In this document: in pieces, positions 28,461-61,051 of the stretch
Numbering within the stretch: position 1 is the first letter of the stretch
How the letters are laid out: every line of letters begins with the position of its first letter
Origin: Peptococcaceae bacterium
GTDB lineage: Bacteria; Bacillota; Desulfotomaculia; Desulfotomaculales; JACDOK01
Direction: 5' to 3'
Assembly (NCBI GenBank): GCA_017656185.1
Contig: JACDOK010000009.1
Location: forward strand, 1,227-65,226
DNA length: 64,000 nt
Made by a program: the position numbers and the translations under genes
The notes under the pieces: generated by a model
What the model was told of the DNA's origin: nothing
The model's database searches: none
The model's input: the letters and a program-made list of their open reading frames with translations, nothing else

Positions 28461-28564
28461 GCCCAGCACTCAGGGTGTAATAAGTATACATAGGAGCATA
28501 AAAGTTAATCACTGGTTAACGAACCCGATATGTGAACTATTGTTACACCTGCTGAGTGCTGGAC
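28461..28564. mobile_element. MITE-like element copy A (104 bp; GCCCAGCACTCAG...CTGAGTGCTGGAC)
   Basis: The inverted-repeat arms extend to ~20 nt (..GGGTGTAA / TTACACC.TG..), with a 78-nt AT-rich interior ending CTATTGTTA. Confidence 0.55.
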
Positions 28565-32473: not shown

Positions 32474-32690
32474 GGATTTAATTAGACAGGATTAACAGGA
32501 TTAACTAGATTAGGGTTGTTCGGGTATTTCTTTGGGGTCCGTATTTTAGACAGGATTAGACAGGATTAACAGGATTGGGGGTTTTGGGATTTTTTGGGAA
32601 TACCCAAAACAAAGAATTTTATATTCTACTGAATCTCTACTGAATTTCTACCGGATCTCTACCGGATACTCTACCGTACATTTTGGACAA
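32474..32690. repeat. Mosaic intergenic repeat locus: CAGGATT word arrays, GGGTATT/GGAATACCC modules, and a 5 x 11-nt tandem array (32624-32678)
   Basis: Five exact CAGGATT heptamers and three GGGA(T/A). 11-nt units TTCTACTGAAT/CTCTACTGAAT/TTCTACCGGAT/CTCTACCGGAT/ACTCTACCGTA. Confidence 0.75.
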
Positions 32691-38340: not shown

Positions 38341-38550
38341 AGTATTCCTGTCTGCCATTGCCGGCCCTGAGTGCTGGACCCCTACATTTTCAGTGAACAG
38401 TAAGCAGTGAACAGGAAACAGGAAACGGTTGAATAGAGTAAAGAAAATTCCTGCTTCCTACTTCCTGGTTAGTCAATTACAGGTATTTTTGACGGGATTG
38501 ACAGGATTAACTGGATTGGATAAGGGTTTTAGGGTATTCCTCTGTGCTGT
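38341..38550. repeat. Mosaic intergenic repeat locus containing all modules
   Basis: Contains TATTCCTGTCTGCC, a solo arm CTGAGTGCTGGAC (38367-38379), and TGAACAGTAAGCAGTGA (38394-38410). Also contains CAGGAAACAGGAAAC, GACGGGATTGACAGGATTAACTGGATTGG and GGGTATTCCTCTG. Confidence 0.75.
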
Positions 38551-38556
38551 GTAAGT

Positions 38557-38633
38557 GGGGTCAGGTCTTGACATTTGACACAATCTTTTATTCGGCTGTG
38601 AAGGCTTATTGTCAAATGTCAAGACCTGACCCC
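38557..38633. repeat. 77-bp perfect palindromic element (24-bp arms, 29-nt spacer)
   Basis: GGGGTCAGGTCTTGACATTTGACA ... TGTCAAATGTCAAGACCTGACCCC with no mismatch. Confidence 0.9.
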
Positions 38634-38720: not shown

Positions 38721-40532
38721 GTGCCAAAGGCCCAAGATCATATTCGCAATTTCTGCATCATTGCCCATATCGACCACGGCAAATCAACCCTGGCCGACCG
38801 CCTGCTGCAGTTTACCGGAGCTTTGACCGAGCGGGAAATGCAGGACCAGGTGTTGGATACCATGGACCTGGAGCGGGAGCGCGGTATAACGATCAAACTG
38901 CAGGCTGTACGGCTTATGTACCGGGCCCGTGACGGGCAGGAATACCAGCTGAATCTCATCGACACTCCGGGACACGTGGACTTTTCCTATGAGGTGTCGC
39001 GCAGCCTGGCGGCCTGTGAGGGTGCCCTGCTGGTCATCGACGCCACCCAGGGTATTGAGGCGCAGACCCTGGCTAACGTGTATATGGCCCTTGACCACGA
39101 CTTAACCATTATTCCCGTGATCAACAAGGTGGACCTGCTGAGCGCCGACCCGGACGCGGTCCGGCGGGAAATCGAAGATGTTCTCGGTTTTGACGGCAGT
39201 ACCGCCATTCTGGCTTCGGCAAAGACAGGTGCCGGTGTACCCGAAATTCTCGAGCGCATTGTTGCGGATATCCCGGCCCCAACTGGCGATGCTGGTGACC
39301 CTTTGCGCGCGCTGATCTTCGATTCCCATTACGATTCCTATAAAGGCGTCATTGCCTACGTCCGGGTAATGGACGGTTGTTTGCGTAAGGGAATGCCTAT
39401 TCAGATGATGTCAAGCGGTAAAGAATTTGAAGTTAGCGAGGTGGGCGTTTTCCGCCCGGTACCGGTGGTGGTGGATGAACTGCGTGCTGGCGAGGTCGGT
39501 TTTGTCGCAGCCTCTATCAAAAACGTAAAGGACAGCCGCGTGGGCGACACCATTACCGATGCCCGCCGCCCGGCGTCAGAGCCCTTACCCGGGTACCGCA
39601 AGGCCAAGCCGATGGTCTTTTGCGGTTTATACCCGGTAGAATCCAGCGATTTCGAACGCCTGCGGGACGCGCTGGACAAGCTGGCCCTTAACGATGCCTC
39701 GCTGGTTTATGAACCGGAAACCTCCAAGGCGCTGGGGTTCGGGTTCCGCTGTGGCTTCCTGGGCTTGCTCCACATGGAAATCATCCAGGAACGCCTGGAA
39801 AGAGAGTATGGTCTGGAACTGGTAACGACGGCTCCCAGTGTCGTTTACCGTGTCACCAAAACCAGCGGCGAGGTCGTCGAGGTTCAAAATCCCTATGACT
39901 TGCCCCCGGCCGGTAAGGTTGTCAAAACAGAAGAACCTTTTGTGTTGTGTACTATAATGCAGCCCCAAGATTATATCGGGGCCGTGATGGAAATCTGCCA
40001 GGAGCGGCGCGGTGTGTTCCGCAATATGGAGTATGTCAGCGAAAACAGGGTCATTTTGACTTATGAACTCCCGCTTTCAGAGATTATTTATGACTTTTTC
40101 GATCGCTTGAAGTCCGCTACGCGCGGTTATGCTTCACTTGACTATGAGGTTTTGGGCTACCGCGAGGCCGACCTGGTCCGGTTGGATATCCTGGTAGCCG
40201 GGGAGCCGTTGGATGCCCTGTCCAGTATCGTACACCGTGACAAAGCCTACCACCGCGGTAGGGCCATTGTAGAGAGCCTGTGCAAATTAATCCCGCGCCA
40301 TTATTTTGAGATTCCTGTCCAAGCTGCGATCGGCCAGAAGGTTATCGCCCGGGAAACGATCAAGCCCCTGCGCAAGAACGTGCTGGCCAAGTGTTATGGC
40401 GGTGATGTCACCCGCAAGCGCAAACTCCTGGAAAAACAGAAAGAAGGCAAAAAACGGATGAAGCAGGTCGGCAGAGTGGAAATTCCGCAGGAGGCCTTTA
40501 TGTCCGTGCTGAGTGTTGGTGATAACGAGTGA
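38721..40532 (+). CDS. lepA: Translation elongation factor 4
   Basis: 603 aa. [37 protein letters not shown] start with RBS GAGGTG. Confidence 0.95.
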
Positions 40533-41719: not shown

Positions 41720-41746
41720 TTAGCACTCGTCAGGGGAGAGTGCTAA
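41720..41746. promoter_or_regulatory. CIRCE operator (HrcA binding site)
   Basis: TTAGCACTC-N9-GAGTGCTAA, a perfect match to the CIRCE consensus, between the promoter and hrcA. Confidence 0.9.
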
Positions 41747-54168: not shown

Positions 54169-54450
54169 ATGTCTTGGCGAGATATACGCAGGAAAATACG
54201 CAAAGGCATGGCTGACATACTGGAAATCCCGGGTGAAGTGGCTTTAGACCTGCCTAAAATCATTTTGGTAGGTAATGTTCAGGTAATTATTGAGAACCAC
54301 CGCGGGATTGTCGAGTATACGGACACGTTAGTACGTGTACTCGTCGAATCCGGTGAAGTTGCCGTTCATGGGCAGGACCTGTCCCTGCGCAACATAATGC
54401 AGGACGAAATATGCGTGGAGGGGGTTATTAAGGGTGTGAGTTTTAATTAG
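54169..54450 (+). CDS. yqfC: Sporulation protein YqfC
   Basis: 93 aa. LPKIILVGNVQVIIENHRGIVEY....V. Confidence 0.85.
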   Translation: MSWRDIRRKIRKGMADILEIPGEVALDLPKIILVGNVQVIIENHRGIVEYTDTLVRVLVESGEVAVHGQDLSLRNIMQDEICVEGVIKGVSFN

Positions 54451-54517
54451 TAAGCAGTTGGTAAGCAGTAAGTAGTAAAAAGTGAGGAGTGAGGCAGAGG
54501 GTAATTGGTAATTAAGA
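54448..54517. repeat. GTAAGCAGT / GTGAGGAGTGAGG word module starting at the yqfC stop codon
   Basis: TAGTAAGCAGTTGGTAAGCAGTAAGTAGTAAAAAGTGAGGAGTGAGGCAGAGGGTAATTGGTAATTAAG, with stops in all three frames. Confidence 0.7.
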
Positions 54518-54581
54518 TGATCTTAACTTTCTTTAGATATGACCTCAAAGGAATGCTTTTAAGTCCTACCGTAGTATCACA

Positions 54582-54682
54582 GCCCAGCACTCAGTGAATA
54601 ATAGAAGTTTTCCGTGATCTTTATGGTTTTTCAACGTTACTTTGATGCGCTATCTATCAGTAATTACCCCTGAGTGCTGGGC
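54582..54682. mobile_element. MITE-like element copy C (101 bp) between yqfC and yqfD
   Basis: GCCCAGCACTCAG - 75 nt AT-rich interior - CTGAGTGCTGGGC. The interior aligns to copies A and D in reverse orientation. Confidence 0.6.
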
Positions 54683-54731
54683 GAATCACAGTGAGCGAAG
54701 CGGACGTATCACACCGACCGGAGGGAGCGAA

Positions 54732-55964
54732 ATGTTTGTTCTACGCATTCTGGCCTATCTTTTCGGCTGCGTATCTTTAATTGTCAGCGGTCGTACACTG
54801 GAACGCTTTATTAATATGGCAAACAGCCGGGGCATTCACCTTTGGGATATAAAACGCCTCGGGCCGGACAGGATCCTTATCAAGACGCGGCTGAGCGGTG
54901 TAAAACCCCTCCGGCATATCGCCAGGCGTACCGGAAGCAGGTTTTCCGTGCAGGAGCGCATGGGTTTTCCGTTTTTAATATCCCGGCTGCGCCGCCGGCG
55001 GATGTTGGTTTTGGGAGCGGTAATGTTTCTGGCCGCATTATATACGCTTTCATCCTTTGTGTGGTTCATAGAGGTAACCGGTAATACTAAACTTAGCGAC
55101 CATAAGATAATCGAGGCGGTACGTGAAGCGGGTCTGTATCCGGGGGTGCCCAAGTGGCGCTTTGAAGTTGCCCGTATCGAGGACGAGGTATTGAAAAAAC
55201 TGCCGTCCCTCTCGTGGGTAGGAATCCAGATTAGGGGTACCAAGGCATATATTGAGGTGGCTGAAAAGAAACTTCCCGATGTTACCGAAGAGAAAAGGCC
55301 GACCCACATTGTGGCTGCCAAGGCGGGATTAATAGAGGAAATACTGGTCTTGAGCGGCCAGGCGGTGGTGAAAGAAGGGGACACCGTTTTGCCCGGTCAG
55401 GTTCTGATCTCCGGTGAAATATGGCCTCCCGACGCTTTGCAAGAAGGGGACGAGGCAACCGTACTGCCTGAAGGGCCGCGCTACGTCCAAGCTAAAGGAA
55501 TAGTGCGGGCGCGGGTTTGGTATGAGGAGTACGGCGAAATGCCCCTGGTGGAAGAAGGTTGCCGTTTTACGGGGACCGAAGTACAGAGAATTTGCCTTAA
55601 GGTTGCCGGGCACCGGATAAAGATACGCGGCCCGAGAGAAGCCCCATTTAAGGATTATGAAAGTGAGACCAAAGTGTGGCAGGCCCCTCAATGGAGGAGT
55701 TTGCCCCTCCCTGTAGAAATCATAAGCACTACCTTTCGTGAAATAAGACCTTACCGGGTGGAACATAGTCGTGAAAGAGCTTTGGCTCTGGCACGAGAAG
55801 AAGCGGAAAAGCGGATTCGGAAAGTTATTCCTGACGGCAGTAAAATACTGAACCGCAAAATTAACGTTATTTACACCGGCAAAAAGGAACCTTTGGTGCG
55901 TGTAAAACTTGAGGTTGAAACTATGGAAGACATCGGTCGCCTTAAACCTTTTAAACCCAGTTAA
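54732..55964 (+). CDS. yqfD: Sporulation protein YqfD
   Basis: MFVLRILAYLFGCV.. ATG at 54732 with RBS GGAGGGAG. The ORF-track start of 54642 lies inside the repeat element. Confidence 0.85.
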   Translation: MFVLRILAYLFGCVSLIVSGRTLERFINMANSRGIHLWDIKRLGPDRILIKTRLSGVKPLRHIARRTGSRFSVQERMGFPFLISRLRRRRMLVLGAVMFLAALYTLSSFVWFIEVTGNTKLSDHKIIEAVREAGLYPGVPKWRFEVARIEDEVLKKLPSLSWVGIQIRGTKAYIEVAEKKLPDVTEEKRPTHIVAAKAGLIEEILVLSGQAVVKEGDTVLPGQVLISGEIWPPDALQEGDEATVLPEGPRYVQAKGIVRARVWYEEYGEMPLVEEGCRFTGTEVQRICLKVAGHRIKIRGPREAPFKDYESETKVWQAPQWRSLPLPVEIISTTFREIRPYRVEHSRERALALAREEAEKRIRKVIPDGSKILNRKINVIYTGKKEPLVRVKLEVETMEDIGRLKPFKPS

Positions 55965-59104: not shown

Positions 59105-59549
59105 TTTTCAAGAGGATACCCTGTTGGATGACGCCCTCGAATCTCTGGCGGAACGGGCTGTAGAGGAAACGCTGGCTGCCGAAGGTCGCGGGGATGTTGT
59201 TGAAGTAAGCGTGGCATTCGTCGATGACGAATACATGCACCGTCTCAATAAGAATTACCGGGGTATTGACCGCACGACGGATGTTCTGGCTTTTCCAATG
59301 AATGAGGAGGACCCTGGTGCTCCCGGCGAGGAACCGCATTTGATGCTCGGGGACATTGTTATTTCCCTGCCGGCAGCGCAGCGGCAGGCTGCAGAGTACG
59401 GGGTTTCTTTGGAACAGGAAGTGGCCCGCCTAGCGGTCCACGGTGCTCTGCACCTGTTAGGTTACGATCACGAAAAGGGCGGAGAAGAGGCCGAGCGGAT
59501 GCGAGAGAGGGAGAATGAGATTCTTGAACGGGTAATCGGTAAGCAGTAA
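59085..59549 (+). CDS. ybeY: rRNA maturation endoribonuclease YbeY
   Basis: TDVLAFP..., HGALHLLGYDH metal-binding motif. ATG at 59085. Confidence 0.9.
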   Translation: MAIIVSNFQEDTLLDDALESLAERAVEETLAAEGRGDVVEVSVAFVDDEYMHRLNKNYRGIDRTTDVLAFPMNEEDPGAPGEEPHLMLGDIVISLPAAQRQAAEYGVSLEQEVARLAVHGALHLLGYDHEKGGEEAERMRERENEILERVIGKQ

Positions 59550-59580
59550 GCAATGAACAGTAAGCAGTGAGGAGTGAGCG
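59538..59580. repeat. GTAAGCAGT / TGAACAGTAAGCAGTGA / GGAGTGAG word module overlapping the ybeY stop codon
   Basis: GGTAAGCAGTAAGCAATGAACAGTAAGCAGTGAGGAGTGAGCG. The 17-mer TGAACAGTAAGCAGTGA is identical to 38394-38410. Confidence 0.75.
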
Positions 59581-59605
59581 TAACTTATGTAGAACGTAGG
59601 GCGGT

Positions 59606-59708
59606 GCCCAGCACTCAGGGCTGATTACCATAAGTAAGAGCGTTAAGAGTCGAGTTATATGAACAAGAAGGGACATTTGAATGCTCTATTGTTGACTGAG
59701 TGCTGGGC
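59606..59708. mobile_element. MITE-like element copy D (103 bp) between ybeY and cdd
   Basis: GCCCAGCACTCAG - 77 nt - CTGAGTGCTGGGC, followed by GTATCACAG and the cdd RBS. Confidence 0.6.
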
Positions 59709-60133: not shown

Positions 60134-60149
60134 TTACAATGGAATATCC

Positions 60150-60248
60150 GGTAGAGATCCAATAGAGATCCGGTTGAGATCCGGTAGAAACACAGTGGAA
60201 ACACAATAGAGACACGGTGGAGACACAGTAAAGATCCGGTAGAAATCC
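60150..60248. repeat. Tandem array of nine exact-phase 11-nt units (consensus RGTAGAGAYCC)
   Basis: Units: GGTAGAGATCC AATAGAGATCC GGTTGAGATCC GGTAGAAACAC AGTGGAAACAC AATAGAGACAC GGTGGAGACAC AGTAAAGATCC GGTAGAAATCC. Followed by GGAATACCCGAAA. Confidence 0.9.
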
Positions 60249-60358: not shown

Positions 60359-60685
60359 TTACTTTGATAAGGTTTGTAGTTTCTCTTCCTGGTTAGTTAA
60401 ACGGTTGTCAAGCTTTTTAATGTCATCCCAAATATAGCACAGCTCTTTGCGAATCTTTTTCTGGCCGTTTTCCAGGCGAATTAAGCGTTCTTCAAGCGCC
60501 GCCTGGCCCTTTTCAAGCGTTGCCTGGCCTTTTTCAAGTACCGCCTGGCCCTTTTCAAGCGCCGCCTGGCCCTTTTCCAGGCGTTCAAGGCGCTGGCCCT
60601 GGGCTATTTGCTCACGACGCAATTCATCTTGCCCTTGACGCAGTTCCTTGAGCTCTGCCAGGATTTGTTCCAAAACTTTTTCCAT
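60359..60685 (-). CDS. Hypothetical coiled-coil protein with four LEKGQAx heptad repeats
   Basis: 108 aa. ..RLERLEKGQAALEKGQAVLEKGQATLEKGQAALEERLIRLENGQ.. No recognisable catalytic or DNA-binding motif. Confidence 0.6.
   Translation of the reverse strand: MEKVLEQILAELKELRQGQDELRREQIAQGQRLERLEKGQAALEKGQAVLEKGQATLEKGQAALEERLIRLENGQKKIRKELCYIWDDIKKLDNRLTNQEEKLQTLSK
60492..60575. repeat. 4 x 21-nt tandem repeat inside the coiled-coil gene
   Basis: TCAAGCGCCGCCTGGCCCTTT x4 with 1-3 substitutions per unit. Encodes the heptads. Confidence 0.9.
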
Positions 60686-61051
60686 GGTACTGGCTTTTTC
60701 CTCCCAAGCGCCCCTATAATAAATCTATACTACCATAAATAAGAGAGAAGTGGAAGGACTTTCCTCTTATATCCTGTATCCCACATCCCAATTGCCCGCT
60801 TTAATGTAACTTAATATTTAGAAATATTAACAATATAAACAATTCAACCTAAAGAAAGTAGACAGTATCTCAATTACTAATTACCCACGCCGACTGTATC
60901 GTCATAGGGATAAAACTATTAGTCGAAACATAGTGAATCTAAAGATCGTAACAAGTTTCTTAATTGCCTGGTTCAATTTCAGTTGATAAAACTGTTCCCA
61001 AATGGTAACTTATAGTAATGCCATATCTTATTTACGATATGAGAAGGTGAT

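Follow-up and report, generated by a model that had tools for sequence, protein, structure and literature searches.

The yqfC–yqfD spacer

We analysed a stretch of 64,000 nucleotides from a Peptococcaceae bacterium (assembly GCA_017656185.1, contig JACDOK010000009.1), referred to here in its entirety as the window, and focused on a short inverted-repeat unit, copy C, that lies between the sporulation genes yqfC and yqfD. The gap between the two genes spans 54451–54731 (281 nt). A preceding sequence-only reading of this DNA had placed in the gap two 13-nt arms around a 75-nt interior and had interpreted them as a miniature inverted-repeat transposable element (MITE)-like insertion. The arms, the interior and their coordinates were confirmed by direct reading, and the locus is organized as follows.

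54169–54450: yqfC (YabP family)
54582–54594, plus strand: left arm of copy C, GCCCAGCACTCAG, by direct reading
54583–54681, no strand assigned: putative mobile unit proper of copy C (12-bp arms and 75-nt interior), with the boundary taken from linkage analysis across copies
54595–54669, minus strand: interior of copy C, 75 nt, weakly homologous to the interiors of copies A and D on the opposite strand
54670–54682, plus strand: right arm of copy C, CTGAGTGCTGGGC, a perfect complement of the left arm, by direct reading
54683–54696, plus strand: 14-nt flank GCGAATCACAGTGA, common to copy C and the right flank of copy D (GCGTATCACAGCGA)
54720–54734, plus strand: ribosome-binding site (RBS) of yqfD, GGAGGGAG (54720–54727), and ATG, 37 nt past the arm of copy C
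54732: ATG start of yqfD (Pfam YqfD)

The bases G54582 and C54682 lengthen the stem of copy C to 13 bp, and with both 13-nt arms included the copy amounts to 101 bases. It had been suggested that the arms would form a stem in the operon mRNA. Structure prediction agrees: in the fold predicted for the spacer RNA, the 13-bp stem is the dominant and the only robust feature. Copy C alone has a sense-strand fold with z = −4.1, matched by 0 of 200 shuffles; the whole spacer, at z = +1.0, folds no better than shuffled sequence. Prediction gave neither a promoter-like nor a terminator-like site in the gap.

The sequence-only reading also held that the flank of the element supplies the RBS of yqfD, a proposal that found no support. 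Past the right arm, copies C and D share only 14 nt (GCGWATCACAGYGA), a segment that is itself outside the family-wide unit, and the RBS lies 37 nt beyond the arm. Since element-free relatives carry a similar GGAGG just before yqfD, the RBS looks native and is probably not part of the repeat. The heptamer ATCACAG, reported in both flanks, is present at 54576–54582 (its final G being the first arm base) and at 54685–54691, and a third related heptamer, ATCACAC, occupies 54708–54714. However, this feature is local: copies A and D lack the ATCACAG pair, and a metagenome scan for the arm together with this flank gave zero matches, so that the flank is no general part of the element. As target-site duplication was absent from 129 copies (see below), we consider the pair a peculiarity of this locus.

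A comparison with relatives, in search of an empty site, had been suggested. The yqfC–yqfD spacer measures 16 nt in Desulforudis, 35 nt in a Bacillota metagenome-assembled genome (MAG), 56 nt in Desulfofundulus salinus and 14 nt in Pelotomaculum terephthalicicum, compared with 281 nt here. All four spacers end in a GGAGG-type RBS and none contains the arm sequence. Likewise, ybeY and cdd, the genes around copy D, overlap by 4 nt in two relatives that have them adjacent, compared with a spacer of ~190 nt here. Copies C and D therefore sit in expanded spacers, which are also filled by other small repeats.

Other copies in the window

The window contains three full copies and one solo arm in 64 kb, with units of 99–104 nt and arms of 12–13 bp, which substantiates the earlier proposal of a dispersed family of small non-coding inverted repeats. 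Apart from copy C, these are:

28461–28564, plus strand: copy A, 78-nt interior, one C·A stem mismatch, in a divergent intergenic region
38367–38379, minus strand: solo arm (GTCCAGCACTCAG on the minus strand), beside 7-nt repeats
59606–59708, plus strand: copy D, 77-nt interior, perfect arms, in the ybeY–cdd spacer of the gene string that also holds copy C

The solo arm is probably a remnant. With up to two mismatches allowed, the 13-nt arm occurs eight times in the window, compared with 1.4 ± 1.2 times in shuffled sequence, and none of the shuffles reached eight. Perfect 13-nt inverted pairs spaced 3–120 nt apart are found at only three sites, namely copies C and D and a 24-bp repeat at 38557 that is unrelated to them, whereas for the window first-order Markov simulations lead one to expect 0.17. 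The interiors are about 50% alike while the arms are perfect. Nevertheless, the interior of copy C aligns to those of A and D when reverse-complemented (z = 4.3 and 5.2, respectively) but not on the same strand (z = 1.5 and −0.2), and its inverted orientation, noted previously, is thereby upheld.

A family of hairpin repeats

Scanning one genome per species with the pattern CCAGCACTCAG-N60-90-CTGAGTGCTGG revealed at least 101 loci with exact arms 60–90 nt apart, where by our estimate about one is expected by chance. Metagenomes added 58 such loci, and the two scans together yielded a set of about 190 copies. Among the matches listed, Bacillota hosts include Desulfofundulus, Moorella/Neomoorella, Desulforudis, Ammonifex, Pelotomaculum and Syntrophomonadaceae. 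Several Bacillota MAGs have dozens of copies each, and the family is also present in several Patescibacteria. MAG044 (JBFLWY01), JBFLVI01 and JASEJH01 are rich in the element, and its carriers in culture include Desulfofundulus thermosubterraneus DSM 16057, D. australicus DSM 11792, Neomoorella stamsii DSM 26217 and Moorella mulderi DSM 14980. Matches in Acidobacteriota and Burkholderiales (L020, L025 and L051 in our numbering of collected loci) look like heptamer tandem arrays in which the arm occurs by coincidence and were not counted.

The unit consists of 12-bp inverted arms, CCCAGCACTCAG and CTGAGTGCTGGG, around an interior of ~75 nt that varies in sequence. Position 12, which the search did not impose, completes the 12-bp stem; among 123 unique copies it is C–G in 96 and T–A in 15. 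Position 13 in these copies is a purine in the left arm and a pyrimidine in the right arm, each independent of the other, and in 82 of the 123 the start of the interior is unpaired. Interior length has its mode at 75–76 nt, with most copies at 64–88 nt; a handful of short-loop forms have loops of 3–14 nt. According to linkage analysis, the travelling unit ends at arm position 12; the next 2–3 nt outward differ even where two copies have the same flanks.

The interiors fall into 51 similarity groups. A nhmmer profile of the four largest subfamilies missed the interiors from the window, Moorella, Desulfofundulus and the candidate phyla radiation (CPR); common ancestry of the interiors is not demonstrable. 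RNAalifold, applied to 29 members of the largest subfamily, recovered the outer stem and no conserved interior fold; the innermost stem pair of this subfamily covaries from G–C to A–U. No Rfam 15 model matched the window at gathering score, and the lone match at E ≤ 10 was a spurious small nucleolar RNA of 14 bits.

Most copies are intergenic, lying between tandem (83), divergent (30) or convergent (13) genes. Apparent copies inside open reading frames (ORFs) proved to be upstream of the real gene starts. A short form, CCAGCACTC-N8-GAGTGCTGG (L005, 7053–7078), is read through in frame in a CobQ-like ORF, at what looks like an inter-domain linker. In Patescibacteria, copies (L010, 2640–2735 and 4290–4385; L110, L121, L130, L133 and others) lie in larger repeated contexts, for example with the unit between AAACCTTTAC and GTGCTCAATGTTGT, and 14-nt-loop hairpins with the same arms come after a conserved 60-nt sequence. 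No match to the interiors turned up in BLAST searches of phage and plasmid collections, and scans of viral contigs found zero long forms and one short form; capture of foreign DNA or carriage by phages is thus unsupported.

Landing sites in structured RNAs

Family members also occur within structured RNAs, as delineated with Rfam models:

16S rRNA, helix 6: L053, L006, L152
16S rRNA, V2 hairpin: L006
23S rRNA, helix 9, the hairpin near Rfam model position 282, and helix 25: L144, all in one gene
RNase P RNA, P12: L102, L006
RNase P RNA, 3′ linker: L006
Cobalamin riboswitch, variable hairpin between GCCACUG and GGGAAGG: L016, L035, L038, L014, L048
Cobalamin riboswitch, P2, short form: L033

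The 23S rRNA example (L144, 1760–2500; metagenome contig Ga0182240_101605) has three members within the first 600 nt of the gene, of which two share an interior subfamily and one has compensatory arm changes (CCCGGCAC / GTGCCGGG). In a Syntrophomonadaceae MAG (L006, 1–502 and 4062–4611), two copies reside in 16S rRNA and two more in an RNase P RNA that is 550 nt long. The cleanest comparison, a polymorphism at a unique site, comes from rnpB: the D. thermosubterraneus gene carries the arms and a 76-nt interior in P12, whereas two relatives (TatC 91% and 84% identical) have a P12 tip of 15–17 nt in an rnpB that is otherwise nearly identical where aligned. This short tip is flanked by arm-like strands, GCCCGGCAC and GTGCCGGGC, a variant that recurs in a bona fide long copy.

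When filled sites are compared with their empty paralogues, the unit stands in place of an apical loop of ~14 nt. The replaced loop may be that of a larger palindromic repeat or of another family member, the latter resulting in nested copies. Across lineages, 16S helix 6 and RNase P P12 contain the same arms with unrelated interiors, and copy pairs that share both flanks have unrelated interiors in 31 of 107 cases. An inverted interior between unchanged flanks was seen in 3 of 141 pairs, orientation being concordant in the other 138. Copies C and D, with their common right flank and inverted interiors, show the relation seen in those three pairs.

How the element might move

Were copy C a classical MITE, it would be a deletion derivative of an insertion sequence (IS) with a DDE transposase, moved in trans through its terminal inverted repeats. 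The form fits: this is a small non-coding element in many copies, with inverted repeats at its ends, and ATCACAG stands on both sides of copy C. To this extent the earlier MITE-like label holds. On the other hand, at most 7 of the 129 copies show a direct repeat of at least 4 nt at any of 25 boundary offsets, so there is no target-site duplication, and the ATCACAG pair is missing from A and D. In the 1.28 Mb of collected locus DNA we found no partner transposase and no long, autonomous element with these ends. ORFs neighbouring the copies clustered into housekeeping families, with no recurring protein family; Pfam matches in ORFs beside or around copies were to DHH, ClpP, MiaA and epimerase. 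Moreover, the outermost arm bases are variable and the inner ones fixed, the reverse of typical IS ends, and apical loops are replaced instead of sites being duplicated. Given the lack of target-site duplication, we do not regard the element as a classical MITE, an identity that is very unlikely.

Absence of duplication is what would be expected of repetitive extragenic palindromes (REPs) and of their inverted doublets (REPINs), which are moved as single-stranded DNA by a REP-associated tyrosine transposase (RAYT), an IS200-like Y1 enzyme with an HUH (histidine–hydrophobic–histidine) motif. Other traits point the same way. The unit is a hairpin-forming inverted doublet with a less conserved spacer, each arm fits the consensus independently, short-loop forms of 25–36 nt resemble single REPs, and copies nest and cluster in long non-coding tracts. 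However, REP superfamilies are defined by an imperfectly palindromic unit of 20–40 nt and a GTAG or CGTC tag (PMC3733652), while a single arm of 12–13 nt is not palindromic and has neither tag. Searching the collected loci by tblastn with RayT and IS200 TnpA queries identified no RAYT; the only match was an unrelated IS200/IS605 element in L016, the ends of which are unlike the arms. Furthermore, copies reside inside RNA genes and show no preference for convergent (3′-end) positions. As the arms are not self-palindromic and lack the tag, and as no RAYT was found in the collected loci, we do not assign the element to REPs, and a REP-type origin appears unlikely.

The shared right flank and opposite interiors of C and D, a relation repeated in three further pairs, could also be produced by an inverton, in which a recombinase flips the interior between the arms as an on/off switch. 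Independent short-read contigs of the source sample (SRR13776093; L001 and L166) end at 54629 and 54662, within copy C, and at 59619, where the arm of copy D lies. These ends hint at heterogeneity or assembly trouble and do not fit a simple inversion bubble. A freely switching element is also at odds with the concordance of interior and flanks in 138 of 141 pairs. There is no promoter-like site in the interior and no recombinase gene nearby, and 75 bp is a very short distance for recombinase synapsis. We give an inverton next to no credence.

Resemblance to CIRCE

The arms contain AGCACTC and GAGTGCT, the 7-mer core of CIRCE (controlling inverted repeat of chaperone expression), in the same polarity. 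A perfect CIRCE (TTAGCACTC GTCAGGGGA GAGTGCTAA) is present in the window itself, at 41720–41746 in a heat-shock gene region, and the short form in L033, CCAGCACTC-N9-GAGTGCTGG, has the exact 9-9-9 geometry of CIRCE. This raises the question of whether the arms are half-sites for HrcA (TTAGCACTC-N9-GAGTGCTAA) that bind or titrate the repressor, or whether they descend from CIRCE. CIRCE is conserved across phyla, and its conservation could then account for that of the arms too. Yet each half-site matches at 7 of 9 bases, with CC in place of TT as the outer bases, and the spacing between 7-mers has its mode at 79–80 nt instead of 9. Family copies are not positioned at heat-shock promoters, and their location is unrelated to chaperone genes. 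The long-form spacing rules out ordinary HrcA binding. We estimate the a posteriori probability of the 7-mer coincidence at ~0.01–0.03, which is not negligible, and regard a relationship with CIRCE as extremely improbable.

DNA-level or RNA-level element

We next consider whether the stem-loop is retained for a function in RNA, as an RNase III site or a block to 3′-exonucleases that sets the yqfC:yqfD ratio. The stable 13-bp stem predicted on the sense strand speaks for this possibility, as does the occurrence of two copies at junctions of one gene string (yqfC/yqfD and ybeY/cdd). In addition, members occupy 23S helices 9 and 25 and 16S helix 6, known sites of intervening sequences cleaved by RNase III (PMC11270868). 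However, the stem reads identically in either insertion orientation, and C and D are oppositely oriented. G·U pairs show no sense-strand enrichment (14 versus 17), the orientation of the interior relative to transcription shows no consistent bias apart from subfamily 1, and the interior has no conserved structure. The spacer as a whole does not fold better than chance, and relatives manage with spacers of 14–56 nt. A host function of this kind is distinctly unlikely. Since the stem, position 13, G·U usage and orientation are all strand-symmetric and no interior fold is conserved, the sequences point to a DNA-level element that would be rendered harmless in transcripts by its perfect GC-rich stem, with no RNA function of its own.

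Our preferred interpretation, to which we assign a probability of roughly 0.6, is that copy C belongs to a hitherto unrecognised family of non-autonomous selfish repeats at the DNA level, akin to the intervening sequences of rRNA. The family is found where a self-contained stem-loop is tolerated: at helix tips of structured RNAs, in palindromic repeats and in untranslated spacers. Its spread would depend on an activity supplied in trans for which each arm is a DNA recognition site. This could be a hairpin-tip-specific HUH-type or a site-specific recombinase, or arm-mediated template switching or cassette exchange; it would not be a DDE transposase. Correction of quasi-palindromes by template switching is an established mechanism, and through it the arms could stay in perfect complementarity even if RNA were under no selection.

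At the locus itself, copy C would be co-transcribed with the yqfC–yqfD operon, and its 13-bp GC-rich stem would clamp the interior into an inert stem-loop, just as the stem may insulate the interior in any other transcript. yqfD would be translated from its own Shine–Dalgarno sequence downstream of the arm. On this model, copy C most likely does no more than lengthen the untranslated spacer and place an inert stem-loop in it, and a long spacer with such a stable stem probably has little consequence for the sporulation operon. By analogy, cleavage or blocking of exonucleases at the stem of copy C is possible, for rRNA intervening sequences are cut by RNase III with no religation (PMC11270868). 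Any such effect would resemble that of intervening sequences or REPs, with a double-strand-specific (RNase III-type) cleavage site or a 3′-exonuclease barrier and no dedicated regulator.

Several observations weigh against this interpretation. No mobilising enzyme was found in the 1.28 Mb of collected loci, and mobility rests on distribution and polymorphism. The nearest YqfD homologues of the source MAG are only 56–57% identical, so that the empty site is defined at family, not strain, distance. Gain versus loss is not polarised at any site; at P12 of rnpB the two are indistinguishable, because the seemingly empty tip has the arm-like GCCCGGCAC and GTGCCGGGC. The conservation of the arms across genomes is partly a matter of ascertainment, given that the search pattern fixed 11 of 12 arm positions. 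All seven scorable copies of subfamily 1 are opposite to transcription; these copies are non-independent, sitting in host repeats with fixed relative orientation. Finally, the conserved interior length of ~75 nt is not explained by pure selfishness and could mean function.

A more far-reaching proposal is that a single cross-phylum family of ~99-nt ‘clamped-loop’ cassettes underlies features hitherto treated as separate, namely the long 16S helix 6, the intervening sequences of 23S helices 9 and 25, the long P12, the oversized riboswitch hairpins and the operon-spacer repeats of thermophilic Bacillota and Patescibacteria, and that it moves by a new, duplication-free mechanism at hairpin tips that swaps or inverts interiors between the fixed 12-bp arms. 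The mechanism could be recombinase-mediated cassette exchange, possibly tied to the CIRCE-like core of the arms. We offer this proposal tentatively and consider it doubtful as a whole.

Relation to known systems

The closest parallel to the hairpin family is offered by rRNA intervening sequences, inserts of ~100 nt at rRNA helix tips, in which the two complementary ends pair into a stem (PMC11270868). They are distributed sporadically, and horizontal spread is suspected (PMC11270868). Their sites are 23S helices 9, 25 and 45 and 16S helix 6, and family members are found exactly in 23S helices 9 and 25 and 16S helix 6. Thermophilic Desulfotomaculum clusters have an enlarged helix 6, and its length of 80–100 nt is on record as a signature of clusters Ic and Id, among others (PMC3339622). 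The hairpin family is likewise present in genomes from this group (Desulfofundulus). Expansion segments have been reported in the 5S rRNA of the same groups (PMC7812874). Unlike intervening sequences, which have been described locus by locus and not as a genome-wide repeat family, the arms are also present in RNase P RNA, riboswitches, other repeats and mRNA spacers, the last being the setting of copy C, and they number dozens per genome. Intervening sequences are excised from the precursor by RNase III, which leaves fragmented rRNA; such excision is putative for members of the hairpin family.

Other repeat classes share fewer traits. MITEs, such as Correia/NEMIS, RUP and Nezha, are like the family in being small multicopy units with no coding capacity and with inverted repeats at their ends, and in often being co-transcribed with the genes next to them. 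The family differs in that it has neither target-site duplications nor a cognate IS in the collected loci, and its interiors are unrelated between subfamilies while the arms are identical. With REPs, bacterial interspersed mosaic elements (BIMEs) and REPINs it has in common palindromic, duplication-free hairpin doublets with a looser spacer, clustering, nesting, and short as well as long forms. It differs from them in arms that lack both self-complementarity and a GTAG or CGTC tag (PMC3733652), in invading RNA genes, and in its hosts, which are Bacillota and Patescibacteria. The hosts of REPs are mainly Proteobacteria.

Rickettsia palindromic elements are reportedly selfish repeats in functional genes, mostly protein-coding, and cyanobacterial short tandemly repeated repetitive (STRR) heptamers are said to occur in P12 of RNase P RNA. 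Both resemble the hairpin family in surviving where the product tolerates an extra module, and both differ from it in sequence, size and host. With STRR heptamers it further shares P12 as a landing place, and 7-nt tandem repeats accompany the element in the window. Unlike Rickettsia palindromic elements, the family is found in frame in an ORF only as a short form (L005). CIRCE is likewise an inverted repeat with an AGCACTC...GAGTGCT core conserved across phyla, with the differences in spacing (~79 versus 9 nt), outer bases and location given above. No description of the family was found in Rfam or the searchable literature, where the arm sequence matched only unrelated primers, and the family is apparently undescribed so far.

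If our interpretation is correct, a selfish hairpin colonising helix tips would unite a number of scattered oddities: the long helix 6 that serves as a taxonomic signature in Desulfotomaculum relatives, the intervening sequences of rRNA, and the oversized hairpins of P12 and of riboswitches. This would provide a sequence-defined system for studying the origin of bacterial RNA expansion segments and the tolerance of structured RNAs to insertion, and an entry to the enzyme that moves duplication-free palindromic repeats in Firmicutes and CPR bacteria. In practical terms, such elements break short-read assemblies, inflate 16S rRNA lengths and can pass for regulatory RNA.

Other repeats in the window

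Two further modules lie upstream of copy C in the yqfC–yqfD spacer:

54451–54497, plus strand: 7-nt tandem repeat module (GTAAGCA / GTGAGGA), immediately following the stop codon of yqfC
54499–54536, plus strand: 38-nt module GGGTAATTGGTAATTAAGATGATCTTAACTTTCTTTAG, another small spacer repeat, with an inverted counterpart at 60849–60886

Tandem repeats of 7 nt (GTAAGCA / GTGAGGA / CAGGAAA) are present at 54451–54497, 59538–59583 and 38390–38430. The array at 59538–59583, of the GTAAGCA / GTGAGGA type, precedes copy D, and the one at 38390–38430 adjoins the solo arm at 38367. At yqfC and ybeY the arrays start directly past the stop codons, and the ybeY stop codon (59547–59549) is inside the repeat. 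The two members of the 38-nt inverted pair are 6.3 kb apart and 82% complementary, constituting a small dispersed repeat. Tandem arrays of 11 nt (ATCCGGTAGAG-like) occupy intergenic positions 60146–60248 and 32625–32676 in opposite orientations. The 24-bp perfect inverted repeat at 38557–38580 and 38610–38633, with 29 nt between its halves, contains TTGACA twice and lies ~90 nt upstream of an ORF starting at 38721; it is unrelated to the hairpin family. Four in-frame 21-nt repeats at 60485–60589 lie inside a small minus-strand ORF (60359–60685), the sequence of which suggests a heptad-like repeat protein.

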